Source: Peribolospora baueri
Lineage: Eukaryota
Length of the DNA stretch: 64,000 nt
Direction: 5' to 3'
Assembly (NCBI GenBank): GCA_029717555.1
Contig: JAMDHS010000027.1
Span: forward strand, 124,001-188,000
The notes below the pieces were generated by a model. The model searched no databases and was not told where the DNA came from. It saw only the letters and a list, made by a program, of their open reading frames with translations. Shown here one piece after another: positions 5,262 to 62,078 of the stretch (positions are counted from its first letter, which is position 1; the number at the start of each line of letters is the position of its first letter). The translations under genes were made by a program, and so were the position numbers.

Positions 5262-8200
5262 CTAGCGGTACGCCTCGGGCCAATCGTGCCTCCTCCTCCA
5301 CTCGCCGTAGGGACCGAAGCGAGGGTTCATCGGGAAGGATAAGCCGTCGCCTGGTGACTTTCCGATGGGAACTACAAAATGACATGGGTGCAAGACACTC
5401 AAAGGCGTATGAGTAATGGGAAATCGGGTGCGGCGACCGATGGCCTCGGGGCAGAACCAAAAGCGACTCACGCATCCATCCAACAACGCTGGGGCCCATG
5501 ATTTGCTCGAAGTTGACCCTCCAAGCGCTCCTGCTTCCACTCACTCCAGGCGTCCCCTCTTGCTGTTCCCCGGCGGCGGTGCGTATCTCCCCGTTCGCCT
5601 CCTTGTCCCCATCGAGCCACCAAGGATGTCCCTCATGCTCCAGCCTGCCCCACTCGGCATCCCAGGCCTTTCGCATCTTCCTCTGAGCCCTAAGCTTCGC
5701 TCCCAGATTCGTCGCAGCCTTCCCCACCATCCTTTCTTTCTCTTTCTCGCCCTTGTCCCCATCCTTCGGAACTCCTGCGGCGAACTCCCAGTCCGCGCCA
5801 GACCTCACCCAATCCTTCCACCCTCCCTTCACTTCGAACCACTTTCCGACGAGGAAATTCTCCCGACTCCGAGTGCGATTGACGTTCAGGTGCTCGATCG
5901 TCGTGAGGTTCAGGCTGGCAAGTCGGATGTGCACGGCGCTGAGAGAGCATGTGAAGAGCGTGAACACGAAGCCGCTTCGACAGGTAGACAAGGTTGGGGG
6001 ATGTCACAAGTGAGCTCAAAACGATGCACGACCGATCTTTCCAAATGCGACAGAGACTGAACAACACTCACAGCGGAATGAGGCTGATGACCGTTCCATC
6101 CAGCTTTGCATGCCGGACATTCCTCCTGGCCAGCGGCACGAGGACGGAGAGGAAGATATATGAAGTGAAGACGGTGGACCAGATCACAAAGTTGACAAAG
6201 AACTTGTAGTTGTGGTGACCTACGCAACCCCCCACCCAGGGCTTTCATTGTGCGTTCATCCAAAGGGCATTCATATGGAGTCGAATGCGAGTCCAAAAAG
6301 TTCGACGAAATGGCGAAACCGATGTCGAATGTAAGTTCGGCAAATAACGATACGGAAGGGACGATTCAGCGCAAAGGCGCAATAAAATAGAACGAGAGGT
6401 AGAAAGCGATTACGACAGGAAACAGAACTCACGCAGTGATGATCCATCCTCAGGACGCACTTCCCGCAGTGCTTGCAATGATGGGCCCTAGGAGGCTTCT
6501 GAAGGCCTTCCTTGAAGCAATACCTGTTCTCCGGTGCCAAAGGTGAGGTTCCTGGATCTTGTGGCCTTCTGAACGGCGGTGGAAAGAGCGCCTGGGAAGG
6601 TCGAGCGGGAGCGGTGGGAGGGGCCGACGCCGTCGGGGGCGCAGGAGAAGGGGACGAAACTGCGTTGGTCCCCGAATCGACCTCGGGATCGGAGCGTGGA
6701 TGGCTTGAGGCCATCCGGTCCACTTCTTCGCCTACCATGGCTCCAGTAGTATGAGACCCTACAACGGTAGGCAGAGTAGAATTCATTTCATCTTCTTCCT
6801 CGTCCTCCTCGACCCGTTGCCCGATGCCTAAAACGGCCTCGCTGCTTGCGTTTTTCATCGCCCCACCCCCATCCCCGGTGCCAGTCCCAGTCCCACCTCC
6901 CTCGCTCTGCTCCTCCGCCGTCAGTTGCGCCAGACTTGTGCTCCGTGGAACGTGTTGTAAAGGAAGTGAGTCTTGAGATCCGGATGGGATGGGAGATCTC
7001 GATGCTAACGTGGGAGATTGCGGTTGACCAGTGCTGGAGCGATCAAGACGAGTCGGAGAATCATCGTTGCCGGATATGCTCCTAGCCCCAAGTGAGTTGG
7101 GTGTCCAGCCATTCGCGGCTTGAGGCGAAGAGGCAGGAGCGGTATCGATCTTTCCTAGGTCTGTTTCGGTGCTCTGGCCTCGAAACGCGGACGTTGTGCT
7201 AAGACATTGAGCTGACGATTTCGGGGACGGGGGGAGTGGAGCCGTGGAGCTCCAGCTCGGATAACGCATATGGGAAGCTTCGGGGATTGCAAGAGCGGTA
7301 AGAGCAGACTGTGACCGGTCCTCCACCGCCTCTGATGTGTGTAGGCTGGGCCATCCGTGTCCAACGCTGGAGTCGGCCACCTGAGTGGACATTGCCTTTT
7401 CTTCGTCGGCTGTCCCAGGTCCAGGATGTGCGCCATTCCCAGGGGCCGAGGAAAAATGCGACGCGGAAGGGAGGGGAGGATCCGAGTGAGGGATGTGCTG
7501 CACATACGACATAAAAATGGGCCTTTAGTGCAGCACTCAAAGAAGCGCAAATCCAACATCAGGAACTCACGTCGCTGGCGTACCCTGGCCCGGTGCTAAT
7601 TACTTTGAGGTACGTCCACATGACTGTAGAAAGGAGGCGTCAGATTAAAAAGGCAGATTGCACTCTCTCATCAGCGGTTGGAAGAACCCTGACTGTGCTC
7701 CGCCGGTGAGCGTACTCACACATCAGCCAAAAAACGTTGAAGAAAACGAGGAGAACGACTGCAGAGGAGAAATCATCGGTATCAGCTTAGGAGGTCCATT
7801 CCTCACATGCACAACACGCAAGCTATGCTCACTTCCAAGCTTAGGACTGCCCAACGCTTGCGGTGTTTGGTGGAACATGGCCGTCGCAAATCGATAGGTG
7901 TACACTGCGGCGCAGCCGTGAGATTGATGGAGCGGGCGTTAGCGAGACGTAGAGCTCGAGAGATCCGCCATCGTGGCCGGCTTCCGAGGAGAGCTATCCC
8001 GTCCGCCCATGTATAGAGCAGTCTATCTGCTCGATCGCGCAGAACAGCTCACTTACCGATATAAACATAAATCACGATGGCGAACACGACTCCCACGACT
8101 AGCTTGCGTTGGAACCAGCCGTCGGGACGGTTCAGCCTCTCCGCCTTCTTCGTCTCCACTCGCTCGTTGAAACCGGCGATGTTGTCCGAGCAGCGGTCCA

Positions 8201-25069: not shown

Positions 25070-26401
25070 TCATTGGCGGCCGAGGAAGGGGTCCCAGGCG
25101 TAAGCCTTGTAGGCACCCCTGTCGAGCGAGCGCAGCGCCACAGCCTTGTCCGTCTCGATGTCGGCGATGAGCGCCTCTGCGGTGCGGGTCAACCGTCAGC
25201 GAAACCCGCGCCGCCTGACCGAGATGAAGAAAAAGGGCACAGCTCACCTCGACTGACGTAATTGAACTCTGGCCGGATGTAGCCCAAGACGACGACGCGG
25301 ACCTCCATGTCGTAAAAGTCGCCGGAAAAGCGGTGCATGATGTGGACCTCCTGGAGAAACGGCAGGGCGAGAATAATAAAAAAAGGAAGCGCTTCGGATG
25401 AGCTGATCGCGCGCCGCCAACTCCTTGGGGGTCGTGCCCACGACGAAGCGCTCTCGCTCACCGCCGTCTTGGTCTTGTTCTTGTAGAACGGGTTCCACCC
25501 GACGCTCATGACCATGGGCCACACTCGATAATCGTCCTCTGCGAGCCGCGAGCGCTTGGTGGGTGCGTCGCTGAGCACTTCGTCGTCGGCGTCGTCATCA
25601 TCGTCGTCGTCATCGACCTTGTCGTGGTTGTCGCCCTTCTTACCGTCCTTGCTGTCCGTCGCATCCGTCGCGCAAGCGCGCTGCCGCGCTCCCGTTCCCC
25701 TGGCGCTGATGGCCCGTCGAAGGCTGGCGCCGACGAGACGACCGGCGGAGCCGGAAAGAGAGGAGCCGGATTCGTCGGCCTCCTCTTGCGGGAGGACGCG
25801 CGCCCAGCCGAAGTAGACGCCGGTGCGCAGCGCGGGGTCTCGGTTTTGGAGGACGCGATCTGGGAGGTTGGCTGAGCGGGAAAAAGAAGGAAAGAAAGCA
25901 TGGATGAGAAAAAGGGGCGGGAAGATGGAAAGGAGATGGAGATCCTCGCCTGACTGGGGACTCACCGGTAGGACAGCCGAGCTCCTTGCCTCCCCTGCCA
26001 AAGCCCCTCTGGACCTTGCCCCTGAGGTAGATGGGGTAAGGCCTCTCGGGATGGTCTCCTCCGCAGATGCTCTTCCTCCTGCTCCTCGGACTGCCAGGCA
26101 TCGAGTTGGGCCGGGAGGAGTGGAGACTAGAGGTCGTCGCGGCTGGCGACGTGGAGGCAACGCTGGCGTTGGCGTTGGTGTTGGTGTCGGCGTCGGCGTT
26201 GTTGCCGCCGGTCGTGCTCCCGCTGGCGCTGGAGCCGGCGGTGGCGGTGGTGGAGACGTTGGAGGAGGAGACCGAGGCCGGTTGGGCTTGGTATGGGGAG
26301 TAGTTTGCTGGAGGAGCAGCGGCTGCGGAGGTGGCAGAAAGGGGCGAGGAAGGGTGGGCGCCGAGACCAGTCGAGCCGATGGGCTCGTGGCCGCTGCTCA
26401 T
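25070..26401 (-). CDS. FMN1: Riboflavin kinase
   Basis: GKVQRGFGRGGKELGCPT|ANL, GVYFGWA, MVMSVGWNPFYKN, EVHIMH.F..DFY, LGYIRPE, ALIADIETD; three introns; TGA at 25070. Confidence 0.95.
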
Positions 26402-36003: not shown

Positions 36004-36929
36004 GGTGACGGGCACGATGTGGCGAGAGAGAAAGGAAGAAAGGAGATGGAGATTGGAGATGGAGGCGGATGGGGGCGTTTGGGTCTGTCAAAGCCGAGAG
36101 CGATAGGAGATAGACGAGTCCGATCACGTTGTTACCAAGGCTGGCGGCGCCCAGCAACGGCGAAGCGGTCGATGGAGAGGGCCTAGCGTAGCTGAACGAG
36201 AACGGCGGCAAAAGAGAGAGCGTAAGAACAGGATCGAGGACGACGACGGCCTATGGGCGAGAGCAAGACGAGGGGTTGGATGGTGTGGGGAGGATAGGAG
36301 ACGTCGGGCGGGAGCAGTCGCAGGTGGTATTTCACTCGATCACGCCCGCCTAGACAGACAGACAGACCTCCACGCCACCACTGGTCACGGACAGGGGGCG
36401 TACACATCATCCTCGGCGTCAGCCCTTCACAGCCGCATTTTACAAAGTACCACGTCAGCAAAGCGATAGGAAAACCCTACACGTCGACGAGCCCCGTCGT
36501 CGTCAGACCCAACACCACCACCCGGGACAAGCAGACAGACGATCGCGCGTCAAATCAGGCGAAACATGCAATGGCAAACAGGTCAGGTCACACGAGACGG
36601 TGGACGCATGCCTATCTGATGTATGGAATGCCCTCCCATCCGTTCGTCGGCTACTGCACGAAGAACATTTTCTTCGGACGGCTCTGTCCGCCCTGTCCGC
36701 CCGCGGTCAAGACGGCAAAGATGGTAGAAGCACAAGGGAGGTTCATGTGTATTGCACAAGTCATGAGGATGACTACCCGAGGTAGAAGACGGGTCCGAGG
36801 AACGAGGCCTCGGGTCCGCGAACGCCGTCAAACCGAACCAGGCGTACCGCGAACGGGTTTTGAAATACGATGAGGGGCATGGAGCGTAAAGAAAAGAGGA
36901 GCGAAAGGAAACCAATGCCAGACATGGGT

Positions 36930-37899
36930 TTACACCTGTTGTCGTGCGGCACGCCAGCAGACGGAGGAGACGAGGTTGAATAAGAGAAGAGCGCTTGGAA
37001 AGGGCGACGACGCGGCCGAGGAGCGAAAGTCATGGCACTCACCGTCTCCAGAGGAGCGTGCTCCTTGAACGTCTCCGCCGCACCGACCTTCTTGCCCTTG
37101 TCGTCCACAGCCGTCTCACCGTGGAGCTGGAGGAGCGCGCTGACGTCGTACTTGGGCGCCTTAAGGATCTTGACCTTGCGCACGTATACGTTCGTCAACG
37201 GGTAGATGCCCTGGCACGCCTTCTCGATCTCACGGCCAATGACCTCCGGGATGAGCTTCTGGACGAGCTCCTTGAGGTCGCAAGACGAAGCCTCGCGCGT
37301 CATGATGTCGAACATCTTCTTGCGGATCTCGCGCACCTGCGACGACTTGGCGTACGTCGTCTTCTTCACCTGGTTCGGGCGACGCTTGGTGAAGCCGATG
37401 GCGAAGAGGCGGAGAACGTAGCCGTCGGTGGTCTTGACGTCGACGAACGCCTCGATGAGCGTTTGCCACTTGCGGACGAGCGAGCGGATCTTGTCAGAGG
37501 TGAAGTCCATGCCGTGGAAGTTGGTCAGGCAGTTCTTGCCCTGAACCTCGTCGATCCGGAGCTGGAACTTGCGGAACGCCTGCTCGTCATCCTTGTTCAG
37601 GTCTGCGAGCGAAGCCTCGAGAATCCGACCCTTCAAGGAGTCGTTGGCGTTCTTCATACCCTGCGAGCGGTTCACAAGGGTCTTGCCGAGGTTGCGGTTC
37701 TCGAAGAAGGAGGGGGCCTTCAGGTCGTACCAGTCTGCAGAGAAGGGAAATCGCCGCGTCAGCAGCGCTACCTTGCTCGTTCCAGGGTGCCTCCCATCCG
37801 CTGAGGATCACTCCACTTACCCTTCCTGGAGAAGGGGTCGACCTGCTTCCTCTTGCCGCCCTTGCCCTTTCCAAGCTTCTTGTTCTTGCCGACAGCCAT
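36930..37899 (-). CDS. RPS1: 40S ribosomal protein eS1 (S1/S3a)
   Basis: [12 protein letters not shown]...[14 protein letters not shown]...[26 protein letters not shown]. The terminal micro-exon 36930-36935 encodes V-stop. There is a 5'UTR intron at 37901-37995. Confidence 0.98.
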
Positions 37900-46167: not shown

Positions 46168-46964
46168 GCGTCCCCGTCAAGCCATAGATTCGTACGAGCG
46201 AGCGTCCCTTTCTCCGCCCGTCCTCGCCTCTCCGTCTCCCCACCTCTTTCCGCCTCCTCCATCCCTCTTCCCTTCCGCGCTCGCCACTCCTCCCTCTCTC
46301 CGTTCTTCCTTCCCGGAATCTCCCCTCGCGTCCCCAGTGACGTCCGCACCGCCGATCTGTGATGTCATCTCGATGGATTTTTCAGTTCGGTTATCGTTAG
46401 CCACGGCTGGCTCAGAGTCCCCCCGGGACGCGTCACCTCCCATTGCTTCCTTCCGGCTTTGGTTCTAAAGACGGAAAGATGTCCGAACCGGGCCCGGCGG
46501 GCCTGAATTGTGCGAGTCGTGTGTGTTCGCCAACAAGGAAGCCGTCCCACCACCCAGGAAACCGACTAGATGCTCGTTCTGCATCATACGTAGCACTCGC
46601 CCATCCCTAGAGCACTCACTTCCGCCGGTCGCGCTCGGCCCAACAGAGGAAGCTCGGCTCGACCGCAGCCGGTTGCGCCGATCTCTCGCCGCTGGGCCCG
46701 ACAGCATTCGTTCCCTACTATCTGTCCATCATCGTCTCTCCTTGAACCCGTTCGAGAGCGCGAATGCTCGCAGCTTGGCTTGGCTTGGCTTGTCAGCGAG
46801 CGACCTTCGTCATTGTGACTCTGTCGTCGACATTTAGATTGGCAAGTCGTTATTTGTGTCTCGGCTCATCCCGTCGTTTTGCGAGTCTGCACGTAGAATA
46901 GGTCCCGAGCTCGCACTCGCACTCGCAGCTCCGAGGCACCACTCACACTCGCACCTCCCACGCC

Positions 46965-48348
46965 ATGGACGCGCACCTGGTTCATCCTCACTCTCTCTCC
47001 ATCGTCCTCGCCTTCGCCCGCCGGCCGTGTACGACCTGCCTCTCGGCCGCCTTCACTTGCCCTTCTCGTCGCCGCAAGTTGCACGCTTCCCCTTCTCGAT
47101 CCGCCGCGGCGGCGGCGGCGGCGGCGTCCGACCCAGCCGCCGACCGGGGCAGCAGCAGCTCTTCCCGACCTCGAACCCCTGCCTCTCCGCCACATCGTCG
47201 CCGTGGCAGTCATCGACCGGACGTGGATCTCTCTTTCCCTTCTCATCTCCTCCACCCCACCCCCTTCGACATCTTTCACCTCCCTCGAGGCCATCACCCG
47301 CCGTCGGTCATCAAAGGCAGATACTACGACTTGGTCAGGGCCCTCCACCCTGACGTCCTTCGCGGCCGGCAGATGCAGCAGCAGCAAGAGCGATTCGAGC
47401 AGGAGACCGCTAACAGCGGGGACGATCAAGGAAAGGGCAAGGGAAAGGCTCGCGACGATGGCGACGCGGCGAACGAAGAAGACGTCGCGCGGAAGAGGGA
47501 GGAGCAGTTCAAGCTCGTCATCGCCGCGTTCGATCTCCTCTCCGACCCGGCCCGCCGCGACCTCTACCTCCGCTCCGGCTATGGGTGGGGCGACAAGCCA
47601 CCGTCTTCGTCTCCCTCCCCTTACCCGCCACGCCGACCGGGCGCACCGAGAGCGGGGTGGGAGTACCGCGGCGACGTCCGTCCCAACGCCGGCTTTGGCT
47701 CCTGGTCGCAGTTCAAGACCCACGATGGTTTTGGCTGGCAGCGCGCCGCCGCCGCCGGGGAAGGAGGGTGGGGCCAAGGGGGCGTTGGCGACGATGGCAG
47801 GTTCTACGGGTTCTATGACGCTCATTATTATCAGAACGGGGGACAGCGCGGTGGTGGCGATGGCCCGGAGCTGTATGCGAGCAACAGCACGTTCATCGGA
47901 TGGGTCGCCGTCGCGGTGAGTCGACGATACAGTTCCTACTCCCGATTCTCTCGTCGCAACGCGGTGATCAGCCCAGGCTCTAAACCTCCCCTCCCTCTGT
48001 TGTCTGCCCCGCCCGCAGACCTTCATCCTCGCCATCGGCCAAGCCTTGCGTCTCCAATCAGCCGCAACGATGGTGCACGACGCGGCAGACCGTGCGCACT
48101 TGGACGCGGCGCTGAACCTGGAAAAAGCGCGGAACGAGGCAAAGCGGACGGGGAGGGAGAGACGGGAGATGATACGGAGGAGGGTTAGGGAGGGAAAGGT
48201 GATCGGCGAGCTTGATGATCTTCACGTCCACCATGTCCATCATGTCCACGGCCACGGCCGCGGTAGCGCCGGTCATCTGGGTTTGCCGGGCGTGGAGGAG
48301 GACGATGGAGAGGCCGCCGGTCGTCGTCGGCCTTCAGTAGATCGGTAG
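46965..48348 (+). CDS. Mitochondrial J-domain protein, Jid1-like
   Basis: PTPFDIFHL...IKGRYYDLVRALHPD (HPD motif)...FKLVIAAFDLLSDP.RR..Y; TM helix spanning intron 47916-48018. Confidence 0.85.
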
Positions 48349-48624: not shown

Positions 48625-49887
48625 TCACTTCGCAACAGAAGCCTGCTTGGCTCCCGCGGCGGACGGAGCCTGACCGACGCCCTTGGCGATCACGGCCAAC
48701 ACGAATTTCCTATCCCGGGGGAAGACGCTCGGGTTTTGGCTCAGGGCCACGTCGGCGGTCTGCACGACTTCGTGGTCGTCCTGCCGTTCTCCGCGATGGT
48801 TGGCGGCCTGGTAGACGGAGTAGTCCCCTCCGCGCCGTTCCGCCAGGTCTTGCAGACGCTCTTCCGTCCCAGCGTCGGCGTGAAGGGGTGCGAGACGAGG
48901 GTGGGGCCACCAGCTGATCATGGAAGACGCCGAAGGCCAGGGCGTCGAGGTGGTGATGTCCGGCAGTTTCGACGCATCCACCGGCTCGGTTGGCTCGACC
49001 TTTCGGAGGCCTGGCAGCATGTCGTCCGAAGGAGCGTCGCGGAACCGACGCGGCTGGGACTGAGGCCGACCGCCCCTTCCGCCTCGCGGTCCGCCTGCGC
49101 TGGCGCCGCCGCGGCCGGGACCGTTTCGCTGTGCGCCGCGGCCGTAACCGTCTCGTCGAACAGGCGAGTTCGCACGGGCGCCACCACCACCGCGGGCGAA
49201 AGCACCTCGCGATCTTGGTCCGCCTCCGCCGATGATAGGGGTGTCCATCTGGATGAGATCGGCGTACGCCGTCTCGTCTCCTTCAGCCCCCGTCAAGCGA
49301 GAAGACAAGCGGCTCCGCCTGCCTTTAGGCTTTTGCCCCTTCGCGCCGTCCGTCGTCGTCGTCGTCTCCGCCGGATTTCGGTTGTCCCCTTCGATGGCGT
49401 CATCAAACTGGCCTCGCGCCAAAGCGGCCGAAAGGGAGCCCTCTTCCTTGGCCTTGTCCCGCCTCGGCGGCCTTCGGTGGCCATTGCGCACTCCCCCACG
49501 GCTGCGATTGTTGTAAGACGAAGAGTCGGGAGCGACGTTGCCGGATGCCGCCGCCCTGGCGTTGGCGTTGCCCACGTCGCCGAGGCGCCCTTGTCGTCGC
49601 AGTTCGGCCATATCGAGGCTTCGTCTAGTGAGCTCGACAATGTCGACGGTGGCCCCTCCGATCGTCAACGGGCCCTTACCGCGTCCGCGGCCTGCCCCTG
49701 CCCTTGCGGGCGGAGATGGCGAAGAGGGAGAGGCGGAAGAAGGCTCGGGCGCGGAGGCCGTGGACGAAGAGGCCGACGGGCCATCCGGAGGGGCGGCCGC
49801 GTTGGACAGCACCGGCGTGGCGCTGGAGAGCTGCCTGCGAAGGGTGTGCGGCCCCAGGCGGGCGTGTGCGACGGTCCTGCAGTACAT
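48625..49887 (-). CDS. Uncharacterised, probably mitochondrial protein with an RGG-rich region
   Basis: Intronless ORF from ATG 49887 (MYCRTVAHARL...RRQLSSA, presequence-like); ordered-looking C-terminus GGDYSVY...ALSQNPS. Confidence 0.72.
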   Translation of the reverse strand: MYCRTVAHARLGPHTLRRQLSSATPVLSNAAAPPDGPSASSSTASAPEPSSASPSSPSPPARAGAGRGRGKGPLTIGGATVDIVELTRRSLDMAELRRQGRLGDVGNANARAAASGNVAPDSSSYNNRSRGGVRNGHRRPPRRDKAKEEGSLSAALARGQFDDAIEGDNRNPAETTTTTDGAKGQKPKGRRSRLSSRLTGAEGDETAYADLIQMDTPIIGGGGPRSRGAFARGGGGARANSPVRRDGYGRGAQRNGPGRGGASAGGPRGGRGGRPQSQPRRFRDAPSDDMLPGLRKVEPTEPVDASKLPDITTSTPWPSASSMISWWPHPRLAPLHADAGTEERLQDLAERRGGDYSVYQAANHRGERQDDHEVVQTADVALSQNPSVFPRDRKFVLAVIAKGVGQAPSAAGAKQASVAK

Positions 49888-50103
49888 GGATGGGCGTGCG
49901 GTGGAGCGTCGACTTGACGGTGATGGAAGACGATGTGGACCGTCGAAGGAAGACGGACGGGCGGGTTCGGGCTGCGGCGACGGAAGGCCCGGAGTTAGGG
50001 TTACCGGCGCACGCACACGGAAAAGGAGGGATGAAGGAACGACGCGGGCGGGTCGCCGTGTCTGTCTTGCTTGCTTGTCTGTCGTCCGTGGGACGCTCCC
50101 TCT

Positions 50104-50163
50104 TTCAGCTTCAGCTTCAGCTCCAGCTCCAGCTTCTGCTTCTGCTTCAGCTTCTGCTCAGCT
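50104..50163. repeat. (CTTCAG/CTCCAG/CTTCTG)n hexamer repeat
   Basis: About ten degenerate hexamer units read directly in the divergent promoter region. Confidence 0.8.
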
Positions 50164-50923: not shown

Positions 50924-53900
50924 ATGAGCAGTCTCGCTCTCGGAAGCGGCGCCGACGAACCCGTCAACGTCTCCCACAATTCTCCCAGACTTCATGGCTC
51001 TCACCACAACTTTGGCACCATCGGCGACTCGCGCCGCTCCTCCGTCTCCCGCGACGCCGCCGCTTCACCCGTCCCGTCACCCTTCTCCAACCGCCTCCTC
51101 GACGGCCCACGCGTCTTCACCGACCTCATCGGCAATGACCAGCCGCGCCAGCAGCCCGGCATCTCCCAGCGCCCCGGCCTCAGCAGGGGCTCCTGCGTTC
51201 GAGCAAAGTCTCCCTTGCCGATGCATCAGATCGTCGCCAGCGAGGACTCGGCTGGCGCAGTAGATTTCCATCGCGCGAAAGAGGGGAGCGACGGCGAAGA
51301 CAAAGCCGACGCGCAGTCGCCCAATAAGGCCGCCTCTCCCTCCGCTCCTGGCCCTGGGCCCGGTGTCATTGGCAGCGGGCTCAGTGCTAACCAGGGCGCG
51401 TCGCCCGTCGCGACCGCTCCGCCGATCGCGAGCATGAGCGGCGGTGGCATGCCGCAGATGTCCGAGTTTGACAAGCAGGCCAGGCAGAGTCCCTTTGTCA
51501 ATGATCTTCTCGACAGACTGATTCGCGTCGAGTTGGGCATGAAGTGAGTCTTTTCTGTGACGGATGGACGTCTTCGTGCCCGATCCCATCACTGCCGACA
51601 GACTCGCTGACCCTGGACTCGCTCGCTTTTCTCCTACGCACCCCCATTCACACCACACAGGGACATGTCTCGGCAACTCTCTACCCTTAACCGCAACGTG
51701 TCCACTCTCCTCGACCGCATGCAGCCTGGCGCGGCAGGAAAGGAGGCGACTCTGTCCAAGGCCCCGGGAGGTCCAGCGCCGTCCACTTACGCGCCCACGC
51801 TGTCCGGTTTCTCTGCCACCGGAGGAAGTGCGGCGCCCGCCGGTATGAATGCGCTGTCCGCCAACCTTGCCAATATGGGTCTGTCGTCCGTCCCCGGTGC
51901 CGCCCAGCCAAGCAGTATGACTTCATCGCAGCCTCCGCAGGCTGAGGGCGATTTCCGCTCCCTCTCTCAGCAGCTCTCGAGTCTCAGCAGCAGTGTGGCT
52001 CAGCTCCTCAGTATGCAAACCGGCACCCAAGCCGCATCGTCCGCCGTGCAGCCTGGCGGTCAGTTCGGTCTCGGTCTCGCCGGCTCGCTGGCTGGTCCCA
52101 ACCTCGTGCACCCTAACGACGCGTCCAGTCCTCTCCTCGGCGGCCTCAGTGCCTTTACCGCCGGCGGTCAGTCTCACCTGCTCAGTCCGAACCCGGAAAG
52201 GATGAGCAGTCCGCGCCCCGGTGCTGGCCCTATGCGCCCTTCCTGGAGCAACACTTCGCACGACAGCGGTCACGGAGGCTCTAGGGACCGGCGGTACAGC
52301 ACCTTGCCGCCTCAGGGTCGAAGGGAGAGCATGCCGGTTAGTGCCACCCCTTCTTCTACGCATTCGTTCGTCCCCTCGTTCGCGGCTCGAGCGCACATCT
52401 GCAGTGACCATCGTGTCTGACGCGCTTGCCTTTAAACAGAACACCGACGATAGTCGCTCGTACAGCATGGATTCGACGCCTACGGCGACCAAGTGGGAAC
52501 AGCTTAGTCTGCCTAACGACCTCCTTCGCGCTATCCAAAAGTATGGCTTGGGTCCGCCGAACAAGATTCAGCAGCGCGCCTTGCCTTTCCTCCTTCGAGG
52601 TGCCGACATCATTGCCCAGGCGCCGCCGACGCAAGAGAGGATCGCAGCGTACGTCATTCCGGCTCTGAACACGGTCCTGACGACGCTGCGCGACCCGGCA
52701 CACATGTCATCCGATCGCCCTCTCGGGCGCGGTCCGCTGGTCTTAGTCATTTGCACCACCGTTGATCAAGCGACGCAGGCTCAGCGTATGGCTCTCGGTC
52801 TCGGAGCCAACCTCGGCGTACGTGTCGGCACTGTCGCCGCCGTCGGCGTGGACGCGGCCACCGAAGCTCAGAACGTTCTCCAGATGGCTCCCCACATACT
52901 CGTGGGAACGCCGCAAAAGATGCATGACCTGTTCACATACGTCACTCCGCGCGGCGGCGTGCCCACCAACGACATCCGGCTCGTCATCCTCGACGAAGTC
53001 GACCAACTCATCGCTCGCAACATGTCCGACTTTGTTTCCAGCCTCCTCCGCCTGCTCCCCATCCCCCGAGCGGTCCCGCGCACTTCTTCTGCCGCCGGAA
53101 CGGCCACCCCTCCCGTTTTGAGCCCCGGAATTCCTTCATCCAGCGCATTCGCACCGTTCGATCCCAACGCCGTGTCTGGGTATCCCAACTCTGGAGGTCG
53201 TGGCCCCCAGGCGGTGCTCGAGTCGGATCGTCAGACGGCCATCTTCTCTAACACGGTCCCGCAGGACGTCTTGAACTTCGCGTCGAGCATCAACCTCCGC
53301 GAGCCTGTTCGCGTGCTTGTTCGCCGTGAAGGCGCCAACAGGGGTCTCGATAGCGCGTCTGAGCGGCCCATGTCCGGCAGCAGCACCAGTTCGAGCATCT
53401 TCGGCGGTGGAGGTGGAGCGACCACCGCTGACGCCCTCCTGCGCGGATTGAGGCACTACTATCTCTACGTAGCCGTCGGCAGCGCGGCAGCGGGCATGAC
53501 CTCGCCTGGCATGGGCGCCGCCTGGGGCCGGATGGGGATGGACAGCAGCATCATGCACGCCAAAGAGATGAAGCTCGACGTCATCACTGACCTCCTCGAG
53601 GATATTGAGTTCGGTCAAGCCGTCATCTACACTGCCAACGCGCAGACGCTTGAGGCGGTCACGTACAAGCTAGCAAGCAAGAACATGGAGGCGCTGGCGC
53701 TGGTGAGTGCTCCACCAGAAGTCGTAACGCGGACTTCTCCCCCCTTCCCCTCTTTGAACGCATCCATGAATGCTGATCGTCGCCGTCGTTTGCATCTTCC
53801 TTCGCCTTGTCCAGCATCAAGACCTACCGCTGACGACGCGCCAGACGGTCCTTTCCAAGTTCCGTGCGCCGGGCAGCAGCCTCATGCTCGGCGGCGGCAT

Positions 53901-54291
53901 GAGCCGTCCGGCGAAGAAGGCTTTGGTGGTGTGTGACCTCTTGGTCAAGCCTTCGGACGTGCATCAGGTTCCCTTGGTCGTTATGTACGACATGCCCCGC
54001 ACGGTGGAGGAGTACGTGCAAAAAGTCGCCTGCGCCGCTTCCACCGGCCTCGCTCGTCCTGGCGTGTGCATCAACGTCGTTACCGCTTCCGGCGGCAACG
54101 GTGGCGATGTGGACATGCTCAGGACCATCGAGAGTCACACCCGTATCAAAATGAGTGAGTATAGATCGTCGTCGTCGTCGTCGAAGTCGGACGGGTGTCT
54201 GGTCGTCCAAGCGACGTGCTGACAGACGTTGAGGGCCTCCGTCGTTTTGCCAGCCGAACTTCCCATGGACGCCAAGGCCCTCGTCGCTTGA
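50924..54291 (+). CDS. eIF4A-like DEAD-box protein with degenerate ATPase motifs and a long N-terminal extension
   Basis: Exons 50924-51543, 51661-52336, 52440-53702, 53815-54154, 54254-54291. Q motif PNKIQQRA, LDEVD, and an eIF4A-like end ELPMDAKAL. Confidence 0.9.
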
Positions 54292-55242
54292 GAACGATGG
54301 GTTTCGGCGCCCGCTGCCACTTCGCTCGTGGAGAATTTCCCCCATTTGTCTAACGATATTTGCACGGAGGCTTGAGGTTGCTCCCATCTCGATCCCCGTT
54401 TCCGTCTTCGCATTCGTCGACCGCCCGCCCTTCGTCATCATTCCGCCTTTGCCTACCTTGACTTCGTCTCCATGATCGTCCGTCGTCGTCAACAACAACA
54501 ACAACAACAACATCCTCTTCCCCTCACTCGCCGGACCCCTCGCAAAGACTCCCGTGTTTACTCGGCCCCTTTTCCCGGAACGCGCACAAGCTATTCTTCT
54601 CCTTCTCACATCCGTCCTCCATGCTCTCTCAGCAACGTCCCCGTTCTATTATACCCTCGGGTAACCTCCCGGTTGTGTTTCTAGTCGCCGTTTCCCTTCC
54701 CTCCTCCGCCTTGTCGTCGTCGTTCCGCCGTCGTGTGCGACTGCGTCATGTCCTCCAGAGTTCCCCTCTTTCCTCCTATTTTCTGCCATCGTGTCCCTGT
54801 GCAGCAGCCGGAAATTCCTACTTCTTGGCAGCAGAATCTCTCGTTTGCTCTCTCGTGAGTGAGTGAGTTCGTCGTTCGTCGTCCGTCGCCCGTCCCCTCC
54901 GCTCTCGTCTACGCTCTGCCTCGCCAGCGAGGCGATCGATCGATCTTTGGACTCCTCCCCCCCTATGTTCACTGTATGTAGCTATGCTCGTCCCGAAGGT
55001 CTCGGCAGCATGCTGTGGTCGTACCTTTGGCCTTTCCTCCTGGAATGTTAAGAAGCTCGAGTTCCCCCCTTCAGCCCCTGCCATCCGAGGCTCGACTCGG
55101 CGCGGGTGGTTAGGCCGGACGGTCGGAACGAAGGTGTGCTGCGGCATTCCCTGGTACGCACGGGCCCCTGTCACAGGTGAGCGCCGCGTCGCTTTCTCTC
55201 TCGTCTTCCCTCTCTCTTGCTTCTCAAGAGAAAGCGACGAGA

Positions 55243-59366: not shown

Positions 59367-60213
59367 TCAAAAGGATATCAGCCCACGCCGTCGGGCGAAG
59401 TAGAGGGCGAGGAGGATGGGCAGGAGTAGGCGGAGGAGGAGGCGCCTGATTCCCGGAGCACGGCTCACTGACTCTTGTGCGGACGAAGAGAAGCGAGAAG
59501 GATCAGTGTCCAGCATGTAGCCCCGACGAGTCAGGTGGGGGAGGAGCGAATGTGGGAAAATGGAGAGGGGGGAGAAGGAAGACGAAAGGTTAGATGGCAC
59601 GTCCGAGAAAAAAAAATGGCACGTCCGATTTCGCCCCTATAAAGCGCCCCCCAGATCACCCGCCACCCGCGCGAAAAGATTCAGTCGACGCACCTTTGCG
59701 TATCTGGTGGCCATCGCCTTCGAGTCGTTCGTCCCGTTGGGCTTGCTGAAGGGCAGGTTGGGTGCGACGCCGACGACGCGGAGCGCCATGCCGACCTTCG
59801 CGAACGTGTACGGCGGGTACCGCACGGAGAGGGCCTTCTCGACGAGCGACAGCGTGGGCGCGATGACAGTCGAGCGGTGGTGGCTGAAGAGCTCGAAGGT
59901 ATGCTTGCCGTGGTAGCCAAAGTTGCCCGATGGGCCCGTGCCGCCGAAGGGGAGCGAGGGGATAGTGAAGTGGACGAGCGTGTCGTTGGCTACAGCGCCC
60001 CCGGAGCGGGTGTTGTTGAACACTGATGGCAGAGCAGTGGCGGAGGGATCAGACGACGGTGGGGCAAGGCAGGGAGAATGGGCGCCCAGACCAGATGGGA
60101 CTCACCAAAGTCCCTGTTCTTGGAGTTGTTGGTGAAGACGTAGATGACGAGCGGCTGGTCGCTGGGCAGCGAAAAGGGAAGGAAGAGGAGACACATGGAT
60201 TACGGGTGAGTTT

Positions 60214-60247
<34 letters not shown>

Positions 60248-62078
60248 CACAAGCGGCCAGGCTGAGAAAAACCCTTTGTCACGCTCACTTGCTGTTGATG
60301 TAGTTGACGGGCTCTTCAATGTTCTGCGACAAGGGAACGAGGGGCACGGGTGTCGGTCGTCGGCACCATTTTTGTGAGCGTTCGCGGACACGTTACATGC
60401 CGGCGTTGTCGCCCAGCAGAACGAGAGAGCACTCACGTCAAAAGTCATGATGGGGAAGAGGGGCCCGAACAGCTCTCCCTTCATCAAACTGTCATCCTTG
60501 TTAACGTTCTTGATGACTGTGGGGCTAAAGTACTTGGTCTCCGGGTCCACGTCGCCGCCGAACACGATCTCGCCCTTGGTGTCATCCAGGATCTGCTTGA
60601 GCCGGTTGAAGTGGTTCCCGTTAATGATCCGACCGTAGCTTTCGCTCGCCTTGATGTCGCCTTTGACATCCCCGTAGTACTCCTCCTCGAGGACGGCTCG
60701 GAACTCCTTGATGAAGCTGTCCTGGACGGAGCGATGGACGTAGATGTAATCCGGCGCGACGCAAGTCTGGCCGACGTTCATCACCTTGCCCCACGCGATG
60801 CGACGAGCGACCAGGCGCATGTTCGTCACGGTCGAGTCGATGATGCAGGGCGACTTTCCACCGAGCTGCGTCGGACCGTATATATAGATAGGCGAAGAAG
60901 ACGTTAGATACGCTGGGGACGAGGTCGCTCTGCCGCCGAGGATCGGACGCTCACCTCGAGGGTGCAGATACCCAACCACTTGGCCGCCTTCTCTGCGACG
61001 ATCTTTCCGACAGTCTGATTGCCGGTGAAGAAGTAATGCTCGAAGCGCTGGTCGAGGAGCTCGGTAGTCTCTTTGACGGCGCCATTGACGATGGCGAAGG
61101 CGTCCGGGTCGAGGTACTTGGGGAAGAGCTCGGACAAGATCTTTGAGGTGTTTGCAGACACTTCAGACGGCTTCAAGATGGCCGTGTTGCCCGCTGCAAT
61201 GGCTCCGATGAGGGGAGTGATGGACAATCCGAGCTGTGAGAAAGGGAGAGGAGCGAGAGAGGAACGGGAGGTCGAGTGGAAGGAGAAGGGCAGGCGAGAG
61301 GGGGAAGGCGAATGCAAAGGAGGGAGAAGAACGATGGCCAGGGGATGTCAGCTTTGCAATCCTAACGTAGCTATGGGATCGTGGAACCCCTGTAGCCGTT
61401 TTACTTACGGGGTAGTTCCAGGGGCTGGGTGAGAAGTCGGTGAAGATGGGCTTGGTCAGCCGTCCGTCCGTCCGTTCTTTGCGGCCGCGTCGGAGGCGTT
61501 GCGGAACTCACGAGATGATCAAGACCGTTCCCTGGGGATCCTTCCTGATGTGCGGCCGGTGCAAGACCCAGGCCATTCCGGGCCACGGCCTGTCAGGCTT
61601 GGCCCAAGAGTCGAGGGAGCTGATGGTGTGCAGCAGCTCGCCCTTGACAAGGCCGAGCTCGGAGAGGATCGCCTCGGGGCCGGGCTTGCCGAGGTCTGCC
61701 TTGATGGCGGCGCAGATGGCGTCCTTGTTCTCATCGAGCAAGTACGCGAGCGCCTTGAGCTGGTCCTTGCGGTAGGTGAGCGGGCGCGTGCGGCCGGAGT
61801 GGAAAGTGGCGCGGAGTCGACGGACGAGCTGGCGGAGAGAGGAGACGGCGAGTGCGGAGGGCGTAGTCAGCATGTGCGCCTTCACCTCGCATATCTCCAT
61901 CGCCCTCATTGGTAATCGTCCGATGGTGTTTTTCTCTATGCCTCATTCTTTCATCCATCCTTTCCTCCATCCCTTCTTTCTCTTTCCCCGCACTGGAGTC
62001 GGATCAGACGACGGGCTGGCTCACCGGAGCGATCTCGTCGACCGGGGTGTAAACCAGAGTGCTGTCTTGGGAAGACAT
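59367..62078 (-). CDS. HFD1: Class-3 (fatty) aldehyde dehydrogenase, Hfd1-like
   Basis: [20 protein letters not shown]...GKIV, TLE|LGGKSP (catalytic Glu), [11 protein letters not shown] (catalytic Cys), GELFGP, LPFGG.G.SG..GYHG. The 3' end is ambiguous (see findings). Confidence 0.95.
60216..60246. repeat. Poly(A) tract (poly-T on the sense strand) inside an ALDH intron
   Basis: About 31 consecutive A. Confidence 0.85.

Follow-up and report, generated by a model that had tools for sequence, protein, structure and literature searches.

A basidiomycete family of eIF4A-derived DEAD-box proteins with replaced ATPase motifs and a conserved former nucleotide cleft: probable ATP-independent pseudo-helicases

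A gene for a protein related to the translation initiation factor eIF4A—the archetype of the DEAD-box proteins and a drug target—lies on the forward strand of a 64,000-nucleotide (nt) stretch of the Peribolospora baueri contig JAMDHS010000027.1 (positions 124,001 to 188,000, assembly GCA_029717555.1), which is referred to here as the window and from whose first letter all positions are counted. Reading of the frames and testing of donor and acceptor pairs place the gene at 50924-54291 (+), with five exons, GT-AG introns throughout, and a coding sequence of 2937 nt for 978 amino acids (aa). The five-exon open reading frame (ORF) is intact, and the protein terminates in TELPMDAKALVA, followed by TGA. 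An earlier description of the same DNA, made from the letters only (the sequence-only reading), had placed a catalytically dead eIF4A-like protein at 52470..54291 and had given it an intact ORF over five exons. The spliced frame is indeed open and all its introns are of the GT-AG type; the count of five exons is correct for the full gene but not for that range, which spans three exons and amounts to the C-terminal 55% of the gene, the ATG at 52467-52469 being an internal methionine. Missing from that description was an N-terminal half of roughly 440 aa, which is disordered and carries two heptad helices. Exon 1 encodes its first part, a low-complexity N-terminus together with the beginning of helix 1, a conserved segment that sets in at about 51488. 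The upstream exons are regarded as part of the gene because the two helix segments align with the N-termini of homologs of 800-1400 aa. Exons 1 and 2 in particular were assigned to it because their join—LIRVELGMK to DMSRQLSTLNRNV, across the sole intron 1 acceptor that restores the frame—reproduces the exact spacing of R, E, R, and R in the family.

The helicase core is recognizable by profile and by pairwise comparison. With 63.5 bits on exon 3, the Pfam domain DEAD (PF00270) exceeds its cut-off of 26 (expectation value, E, 2.6e-17), and on exon 4 alone Helicase_C reaches 20.3 bits, below its cut-off of 23.5, the domain being split by an intron and scanned in part; in the Pfam scan of the N-terminal exons nothing exceeded the cut-off, a weak coiled-coil-type match to LPP (E 0.0063) being the only one seen. 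A phmmer search of solved structures with exon 3 returned 81 distinct sequences at E up to 1e-5, the best match being human eIF4A-I (E 1.1e-21, 80.5 bits); eIF4A-III matched at E 2.8e-17 (66 bits) and yeast eIF4A at E 4.4e-17 (65 bits). Exon 4 matched 33 distinct sequences at E up to 0.01, led by the C-terminal domain of yeast eIF4A (E 9.9e-8).

Within this core the catalytic motifs are largely replaced. In the alignment of eIF4A-I with exon 3, DVIAQAQSGTGKTATF is paired with DIIAQAPPTQERIAAY and LVLAPTRELAQQ with LVICTTVDQATQ, and in the region of motif I canonical eIF4A reads AQAQSGTGKTATF where the window protein reads AQAPPTQERIAAY. The replacement of Walker A contains two prolines and no glycine, and exchanges lysine for arginine and threonine for isoleucine (GKT to ERI). 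Canonical APTRELAQQ (motif Ia), VGTPGRV (Ib), LDEADEM (II), and LLSATMP (III) are aligned with CTTVDQATQ, VGTPQKM, LDEVDQL, and IFSNTVP, respectively, and LLARGIDV (V) and YIHRIGRGGRF (VI) of yeast eIF4A with LLVKPSDV and YVQKVACAAST. Relatives of the window protein show HRVAPAI, EKISCAA, and similar sequences at motif VI, and arginine fingers occur in no member. The C-terminal tail is comparable to EEMPMNVADLI of canonical eIF4A. What distinguishes a competent DEAD-box protein is thus present as regards the RecA-like domains and motif II, and absent as regards motifs I, Ia, Ib, and VI. Set against solved eIF4A chains and canonical eIF4As, all eight motif statements of the sequence-only reading hold, as do its claims that the protein has lost the residues with which ATP is bound and hydrolyzed (a glycine-rich P-loop is absent, ERI stands for GKT, and motif VI has no arginines) and that the Q motif, DEVD, and the ELP terminus are retained (GPPNKIQQRA, DEVD, and the spliced (T)ELPMDAKALVA). 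The coordinates of the gene, its motifs, and the other features of the window are collected in Table 1.

Table 1. Coordinates of the eIF4A-like gene, its motifs, and other features of the window
Feature	Positions	Strand	Remarks
Exon 1	50924..51543	+	First ATG of the ORF to GTGAGT donor at 51544
Intron 1	51544..51660	+	GT...AG, 117 nt
Exon 2	51661..52336	+	Rest of helix 1 (to about 51721), heptad helix 2, S/P/G-rich disordered linker
Heptad helix 2	51962-52009	+	LSQQLSSLSSSVAQLL; conserved, in exon 2
RRYS and RRES sites	52290-52336		
Intron 2	52337..52439	+	GTTAGT...CAG, 103 nt, phase 0
Exon 3 (P0001, 421 aa)	52440..53702	+	RecA-like domain 1 with two disordered inserts and start of domain 2
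Invariant K-W	52491-52496	+	At the position of the upstream aromatic residue; from alignments
Q motif	52551..52580	+	Kept, GPPNKIQQRA; from alignments
Former Walker A (motif I)	52614..52643	+	AQAPPTQERI for AQSGTGKT; from alignments
Former motif Ia	52755..52772	+	TTVDQA for PTRELA; from alignments
Former motif Ib	52908..52919	+	TPQK for TPGR; from alignments
Motif II	52992..53003	+	DEVD, Walker B acids kept, then invariant QLIARN; from alignments
Motif III	53247..53255	+	SNT for SAT, S and T invariant; from alignments
Intron 3	53703..53814	+	GTGAGT...CAG, 112 nt, phase 0; junction EALAL/HQDLP agrees with homologs
Exon 4 (first 113 codons = P0002)	53815..54154	+	Remainder of RecA-like domain 2
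Former motif V	53947..53961	+	VKPSD for ARGID, variable in family; from alignments
Former motif VI	54019..54042	+	QKVACAAS for HRIGRGGR, without arginine fingers, variable in family; from alignments
Intron 4	54155..54253	+	GTGAGT...CAG, 99 nt, phase 1; junction IKM/TELPMD, agrees with CKMAELPMN of the homologs
Exon 5	54254..54291	+	(T)ELPMDAKALVA and TGA stop at 54289-54291
(AAC)n microsatellite	54480-54510		caacaacaacaacaacaacaaca
Divergent upstream ORF	48628-50157	-	
Neighboring long ORF with match	6274-7524	-	
Neighboring long ORF with match	25192-26397	-	
Neighboring long ORF with match	36776-37807	-	
Neighboring long ORF with match	46902-48185	+	
Neighboring long ORF with match	60203-61162	-	

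Of 8000 candidates scored in a search restricted to longer proteins, 306 matched at E up to 0.001, the best homolog having E 9.6e-117 and 56% identity; composition, names, and labels are drawn from the best 120 of these 306 (lengths 796-1718 aa). The sequence-only reading had proposed to look for APPTQERI across fungi, and in the alignment with the window protein AQAPPTQERI is present in 120/120 of the best matches. At motif II the same 120 sequences read DEVD (117), DEAD (2), or DECD (1), at motif Ia all 12 commonest variants, which cover 118/120, contain VDQATQAQ, and at motif Ib the 12 commonest variants take in 108 sequences, 105 of them with TPQK. A broader alignment comprised 57 sequences from Ustilagino-, Agarico-, and Pucciniomycotina and contains 35 invariant columns, all 35 of which the window protein shares: K18, W19, G36, G38, P40, P49, D56, Q60, E66, R67, I68, Y71, T107, D109, Q113, G156, T157, P158, D185, E186, D188, Q189, A192, R193, N194, R264, Q265, S270, T272, P274, V277, V292, R295, R296, and L411 (exon 3 numbering). 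By our own count most of them lie at or beside the former motifs Q, I, Ia, Ib, II, and III of domain 1, and the resulting family signature can be read in the window protein as K-W, GxGPP, D..Q....ERI..Y, T.D...Q, GTP, DE.DQ..ARN, RQ....S.T.P..V, and V..RR. Positions conserved to at least 95% make up 102/235 (43%) of folded domain 1, 23/166 (14%) of folded domain 2, and 8/440 of the N-terminal half. Constraint was gauged by invariance at the protein level rather than by the ratio of nonsynonymous to synonymous substitutions that had been suggested, because synonymous sites would be saturated among nearest relatives that are only 56-64% identical in amino acids. The pattern indicates that purifying selection acts on the replacement residues. 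An intact ORF, a family spread over three subphyla, and the 35 invariant columns also agree with the earlier view that this is a conserved protein and not a pseudogene.

The fold that carries these replacements is that of a DEAD-box protein, as had been proposed. AlphaFold2, supplied with a 57-row alignment of exon 3, produced a model with a mean predicted local distance difference test (pLDDT) value of 75.8 and a predicted template modeling score (pTM) of 0.62, in which 203 residues reach at least 90 and pLDDT exceeds 90 over most of domain 1; low-confidence inserts occupy residues 215-259, 299-334, and 350-366. Foldseek against the PDB retrieved the eIF4A DEAD domains 2g9n, 5zbz, 3bor, and 1qde (target template modeling scores 0.84-0.87, root-mean-square deviations 2.5-3.1), with a core identity to eIF4A of only 21-24%. 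For a 577-aa member (P0128) two RecA-like domains were predicted with pLDDT above 90 (281 residues at 90 or more, pTM 0.51); this model best matches eIF4A-I and eIF4A-III, and its domain arrangement is not fixed. In the exon 3 model, strand 57-60 ends at Q60 and is followed by A-P-P and by a helix (64-84) starting at T64. The eight-residue P-loop is shortened in the model to A-P-P, whose prolines would offer no backbone NH for a phosphate. When the core of the homolog P0050 (455-964) was submitted to complex prediction with its own N-terminal helices (215-345), the run, which did not draw on the supplied alignment and in which the fold of the partner is uncertain, gave no answer (score 0.00).

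The family is present in all three subphyla of Basidiomycota—mushrooms, smuts, and rusts. Among the best 120 matches, its named Ustilaginomycotina members come from Exobasidium, Meira, Ceraceosorus, Tilletiaria, Tilletia, Ustilago, Sporisorium, Moesziomyces, and others, and its Agaricomycotina members from, e.g., Mycena, Lentinula, Amanita, Coprinopsis, Rhizoctonia, and Tulasnella. An exhaustive search of representatives gave 66 clusters at E up to 1e-30, the distant ones adding Tremellomycetes (Naganishia) and Pucciniomycotina (Sporobolomyces, Rhodosporidiobolus, Microbotryum, Pseudohyphozyma, Atractiella, Phakopsora, and Cronartium). Neither among the best 120 matches nor among the family-level representatives looked up did names from Ascomycota or other fungi occur, Ascomycota having been searched only indirectly; one of the best 120 is labeled as the fern Adiantum nelumboides. 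In the ESM Atlas only generic DEAD clusters were found, headed by a 65-member "hypothetical protein" cluster, mostly from Basidiomycota. The expectation that automated annotation would mistake such proteins for eIF4A proved well founded: members are named "related to TIF2 - translation initiation factor eIF4A", "ATP-dependent RNA helicase eIF4A", "RRP3", "RNA helicase", or "translation initiation factor", and the label "related to TIF2" is attached to smut orthologs among the best 120 matches.

A careful maximum-likelihood tree of 31 rows and 414 columns recovers the basidiomycete family (11 rows) as a single clade (support 100/100), within which Pucciniomycotina, Agaricomycotina together with Tremellomycetes, and Ustilaginomycotina each form a group; within the last of these the window protein branches off first (100/99). 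The order of the gene tree follows the subphyla, and the family is vertically inherited. Its stem is long (1.05 changes per column) and its internal branches are short, which fits one episode of rebuilding followed by constraint. Canonical eIF4As form a neighboring group (89/85) in which the family is not nested, and a quick tree with different sampling concurs. A phylogeny with eIF4A and Fal1 had been called for; the one built, with no verified Fal1 sequence in it, sets the family apart in a clade beside canonical eIF4A. The sister group of the family (100/99) consists of four Glomeromycotina proteins, from Rhizophagus, Glomus, Entrophospora, and Paraglomus, a grouping that implies either an origin before Dikarya with loss in Ascomycota or else long-branch attraction. 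One glomeromycete also has a canonical eIF4A.

Proteins of this glomeromycete type (P0188, P0184, and P0297-P0301), 530-640 aa long and labeled Fal1p, eIF4A, or RNA helicase, are likewise degenerate, with Walker A sequences such as AKAGKEKY, TQIGQEKI, and AMPSQERT and without motif VI arginines. They share with the basidiomycete family features of the HYYLYVA and K-M-x-E-M-P types as well as the helix motif L..QV..LSTSVAQL. However, at 38% identity they are much closer to canonical eIF4A than the family is, their N-terminus is shorter and large inserts are lacking, and their replacement motifs differ from those of Basidiomycota and vary among themselves. The N-terminal helix motif takes the form LSQQLSSLSSSVAQLL in the window protein (at residue 308), LTLQVATLSTSVAQLV in Rhizophagus, and LTQQVNSLNSTVSNLL in Sporobolomyces; it recurs in smuts, in Pucciniomycotina, and in both Rhizophagus and Glomus. 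A strict version of the pattern occurs in 73/121 sequences of the top family set including the window protein, in 5/11 representatives of Tremellomycetes and Pucciniomycotina, in 4/7 Glomeromycotina proteins, and in 0/113 canonical eIF4As. Kinship of the Glomeromycotina group with the basidiomycete family is thereby supported outside the helicase core. This second helix may be a partner-binding or dimerization element of the family.

Both by sequence among solved structures and by fold, the closest known proteins are eIF4A (Tif1/Tif2, DDX2) and eIF4A-III (Fal1, DDX48), with which the family has in common a minimal two-domain core, the Q motif, D-E-x-D, S-x-T, and an E-(L/M)-P C-terminal tail. 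Unlike eIF4A, it has Walker A, Ia, Ib, V, and VI replaced; three disordered inserts interrupt its core, and its N-terminus is extended by ~440 aa that include the two heptad helices. In the literature, judged by titles and the beginnings of abstracts, no description of the family as ATPase-dead was found, and a 2025 census of RNA helicases in Ustilago maydis was the only relevant publication. In the accessible text of this census, UMAG_05482 is eIF4A and UMAG_06129 is Fal1, while UMAG_05873 and UMAG_00835 appear as "basidiomycete-specific" DEAD-box helicases whose function is given as unknown; both are said to have "several canonical" helicase motifs (data not shown there) and are treated as helicases (PMC12511879). 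UMAG_05873 is placed beside the eIF4A/Fal1/Sub2 group, with no orthologs outside Basidiomycota, and a role in translation is suggested for it from STRING links to translation factors (PMC12511879). Matched by description and not by sequence, UMAG_05873 is probably the U. maydis ortholog of the family. The earlier suggestion of an undescribed regulator consequently needs to be narrowed: a probable member had already been recorded, whereas loss of the catalytic motifs in UMAG_05873 is not reported in the census as far as its text was accessible (PMC12511879). A precedent for a pseudohelicase with a DEAD-box-like fold is Utp25/Def, a conserved protein of the small subunit processome that the accessible text of its source describes in these terms (PMC9539457). 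Utp25 differs in that it is not derived from eIF4A, is universal in eukaryotes, and is nucleolar, whereas the present family is restricted to a lineage.

It seems quite probable that the gene encodes an eIF4A-derived, ATP-independent pseudo-helicase in which the former nucleotide cleft is now a new conserved site. Since a glycine-rich loop is lacking, two prolines are present, isoleucine stands at the Mg-binding threonine position, and there are no arginine fingers, the eIF4A-derived protein would, on the evidence of its sequence, neither bind ATP in the canonical manner nor hydrolyze it; and if ATP is neither bound nor hydrolyzed, there would be no ATP-driven closure cycle for the clamping or unwinding of RNA. 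After one burst of change, the cleft of domain 1 that once served nucleotide and RNA would have become fixed in a new function. Because conservation is concentrated on the former domain 1 cleft, that surface is probably the working part of the protein, and the rebuilt cleft is a candidate ligand-binding site or may represent a self-locked conformation. Assembly or partner contacts would be provided by the disordered N-terminal half and the two heptad helices within it. The most likely role, judged by these features, would be that of an ATP-independent adaptor or regulator in messenger ribonucleoprotein (mRNP) or translation biology, acting beside canonical eIF4A and Fal1, which these fungi possess as well. 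Canonical paralogs do exist alongside: according to the census, U. maydis has eIF4A and Fal1 besides the two basidiomycete-specific DEAD-box genes (PMC12511879).

Several points weigh against this interpretation. The loss of ATPase activity is read from sequence alone, and the protein keeps the Q motif glutamine, an invariant W at the upstream aromatic position, and the acids D-E of Walker B, which may leave room for a non-canonical contact with a nucleotide or with adenine. The best 120 sequences, being the top-scoring matches, are a sample biased towards conservation, and the Walker A region of Pucciniomycotina is different (AQAPAIQERI, SQSNPIQERI, AQAAAISERI); across these variants E-R-I appears as the universal core of the new motif. 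The trees contain no eIF4A-III/Fal1 sequence verified by name and include several long-branch rows of odd composition, and the placement of Glomeromycotina as sister group could result in part from long-branch attraction.

A more elaborate history, tentative and to be regarded as a conjecture with the odds against it, would begin with an eIF4A duplicate older than the divergence between Glomeromycotina and Dikarya; Ascomycota would subsequently have lost it. Loss of ATPase activity would have come first, and in the ancestor of basidiomycetes the cleft would then have been rebuilt into an invariant ligand pocket comprising an adenine-reading Q motif and an aromatic lid, without a phosphate loop. 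The coiled-coil and disordered scaffold would carry this putative sensor or adaptor, whose ligand would contain adenine or be a peptide, and the protein would serve as a lineage-specific regulator of translation or mRNPs.

An alternative already contained in the sequence-only reading, namely that a dead copy of eIF4A acts as a MIF4G/HEAT decoy, sitting where eIF4A would bind on eIF4G, Not1, Cwc22, or a related MIF4G/MA3 protein, and in this way tunes translation or mRNP assembly, appears rather unlikely. Descent from eIF4A, the two RecA-like domains, and the E-L-P tail would suit such a decoy; complexes of eIF4A-family proteins with eIF4G-HEAT1, CWC22, CNOT1, and PDCD4 are among the structural neighbors, and ATPase-dead eIF4A mutants are known as dominant negatives. 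However, the main contact of eIF4A with eIF4G lies in domain 2, whereas the strongest conservation is seen in the cleft of domain 1 (43% of positions conserved to at least 95%, versus 14% in domain 2), and the core is only 21-24% identical to eIF4A. A MIF4G decoy is thus not favored by the pattern of conservation.

Even less probable is an ATP-independent RNA clamp, in which the two domains would hold RNA without nucleotide, as eIF4A-III does in the exon junction complex, and the N-terminus would drive the assembly of condensates or granules. The invariant S-x-T of motif III, the arginine kept by most members at the QxxR position of domain 2, and the long, low-complexity N-terminus are compatible with a clamp. 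Yet the RNA-contacting arginine of motif Ia is replaced by valine, motifs V and VI are lost and variable in the family, DEAD-box domains normally require ATP at their interface in order to close on RNA, and the models, with pTM values of 0.51-0.62, show no defined arrangement of the domains.

That the family is still an NTPase operating through a non-canonical phosphate-binding loop is very improbable: while the family still has the Q motif, the aromatic position, Walker B D-E, and S-x-T, and an arginine occupies the position of the Walker lysine, the loop contains two prolines and no glycine and is predicted to be three residues long, isoleucine replaces threonine at the Mg-binding position, and no member has the arginine fingers of motif VI. 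A decaying pseudogene or an artefact of the gene model, to which the loss of the catalytic motifs might have pointed, is refuted by the intact five-exon ORF, the 306 long homologs, and the 35 invariant columns, and deserves next to no credence given also a gene tree that matches the species groups and a best homolog at E 9.6e-117.

If the pseudo-helicase interpretation is correct, a naturally ATPase-dead paralog of eIF4A with a re-fixed active-site cleft, retained throughout a fungal phylum (mushrooms, smuts, rusts, and yeasts) and probably in arbuscular mycorrhizal fungi too, would constitute a clean natural experiment in the re-use of a helicase fold, and the family would become a candidate for regulating translation or mRNP assembly in a lineage-specific manner. 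In databases, hundreds of entries bear the names eIF4A, TIF2, RRP3, or "RNA helicase", and their correction affects functional predictions in plant-pathogenic and symbiotic fungi; in the helicase census the probable member from U. maydis is included among the helicases (PMC12511879).

Some members and relatives show peculiarities of their own. An RRM is annotated in five gene models among the best 120 matches (three from Tulasnella, one each from Amanita phalloides and Tephrocybe rancida). In four scanned models (Amanita, Tephrocybe, and two Tulasnella; P0063, P0089, P0096, and P0100) it lies at the extreme N-terminus, at about residues 70-170, and in the fifth (P0084) it is known from the annotation. 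This N-terminal RRM may be real variation, or the gene model may have been fused with that of an adjacent RRM gene lying upstream; no RRM was found when the window's long upstream ORFs were scanned. P0163 and P0173 form a very divergent pair with AQAPPTQERM at Walker A and a much changed domain 2, situated on a branch of length 1.46 inside the family clade of the quick tree. Outside the family, the eIF4A-like proteins P0235 (Marasmius fiardii), P0178, and P0242 have a partly broken Walker A (AQSGIDKM, AQSGKEKT, and AQSGTEET), which may reflect independent decay or errors of sequencing or gene modeling. Just upstream of the helicase core, the window protein has two basic sites, RRYS and RRES, resembling the kinase consensus RRx[S/T]. 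As a hallmark of the family this motif was rejected, at least one site being present in only 63/132 scanned sequences (one in 54, two in 9, none in 69); the sites are mainly RRWS in smuts and number 0 in Pucciniomycotina representatives.

The surrounding sequence is GC-rich, and spurious long ORFs are numerous on both of its strands. The (AAC)n microsatellite is located in the 3′ flank of the gene. The divergently oriented upstream ORF is RGG-type, rich in arginine and glycine, and has no Pfam match at E up to 1e-4; its product might be an RNA-binding or a mitochondrial protein. Neighboring long ORFs match DHHC palmitoyltransferase, riboflavin kinase, ribosomal protein S3Ae (E 3e-78), DnaJ, and aldehyde dehydrogenase, and the neighborhood is an ordinary eukaryotic housekeeping context.

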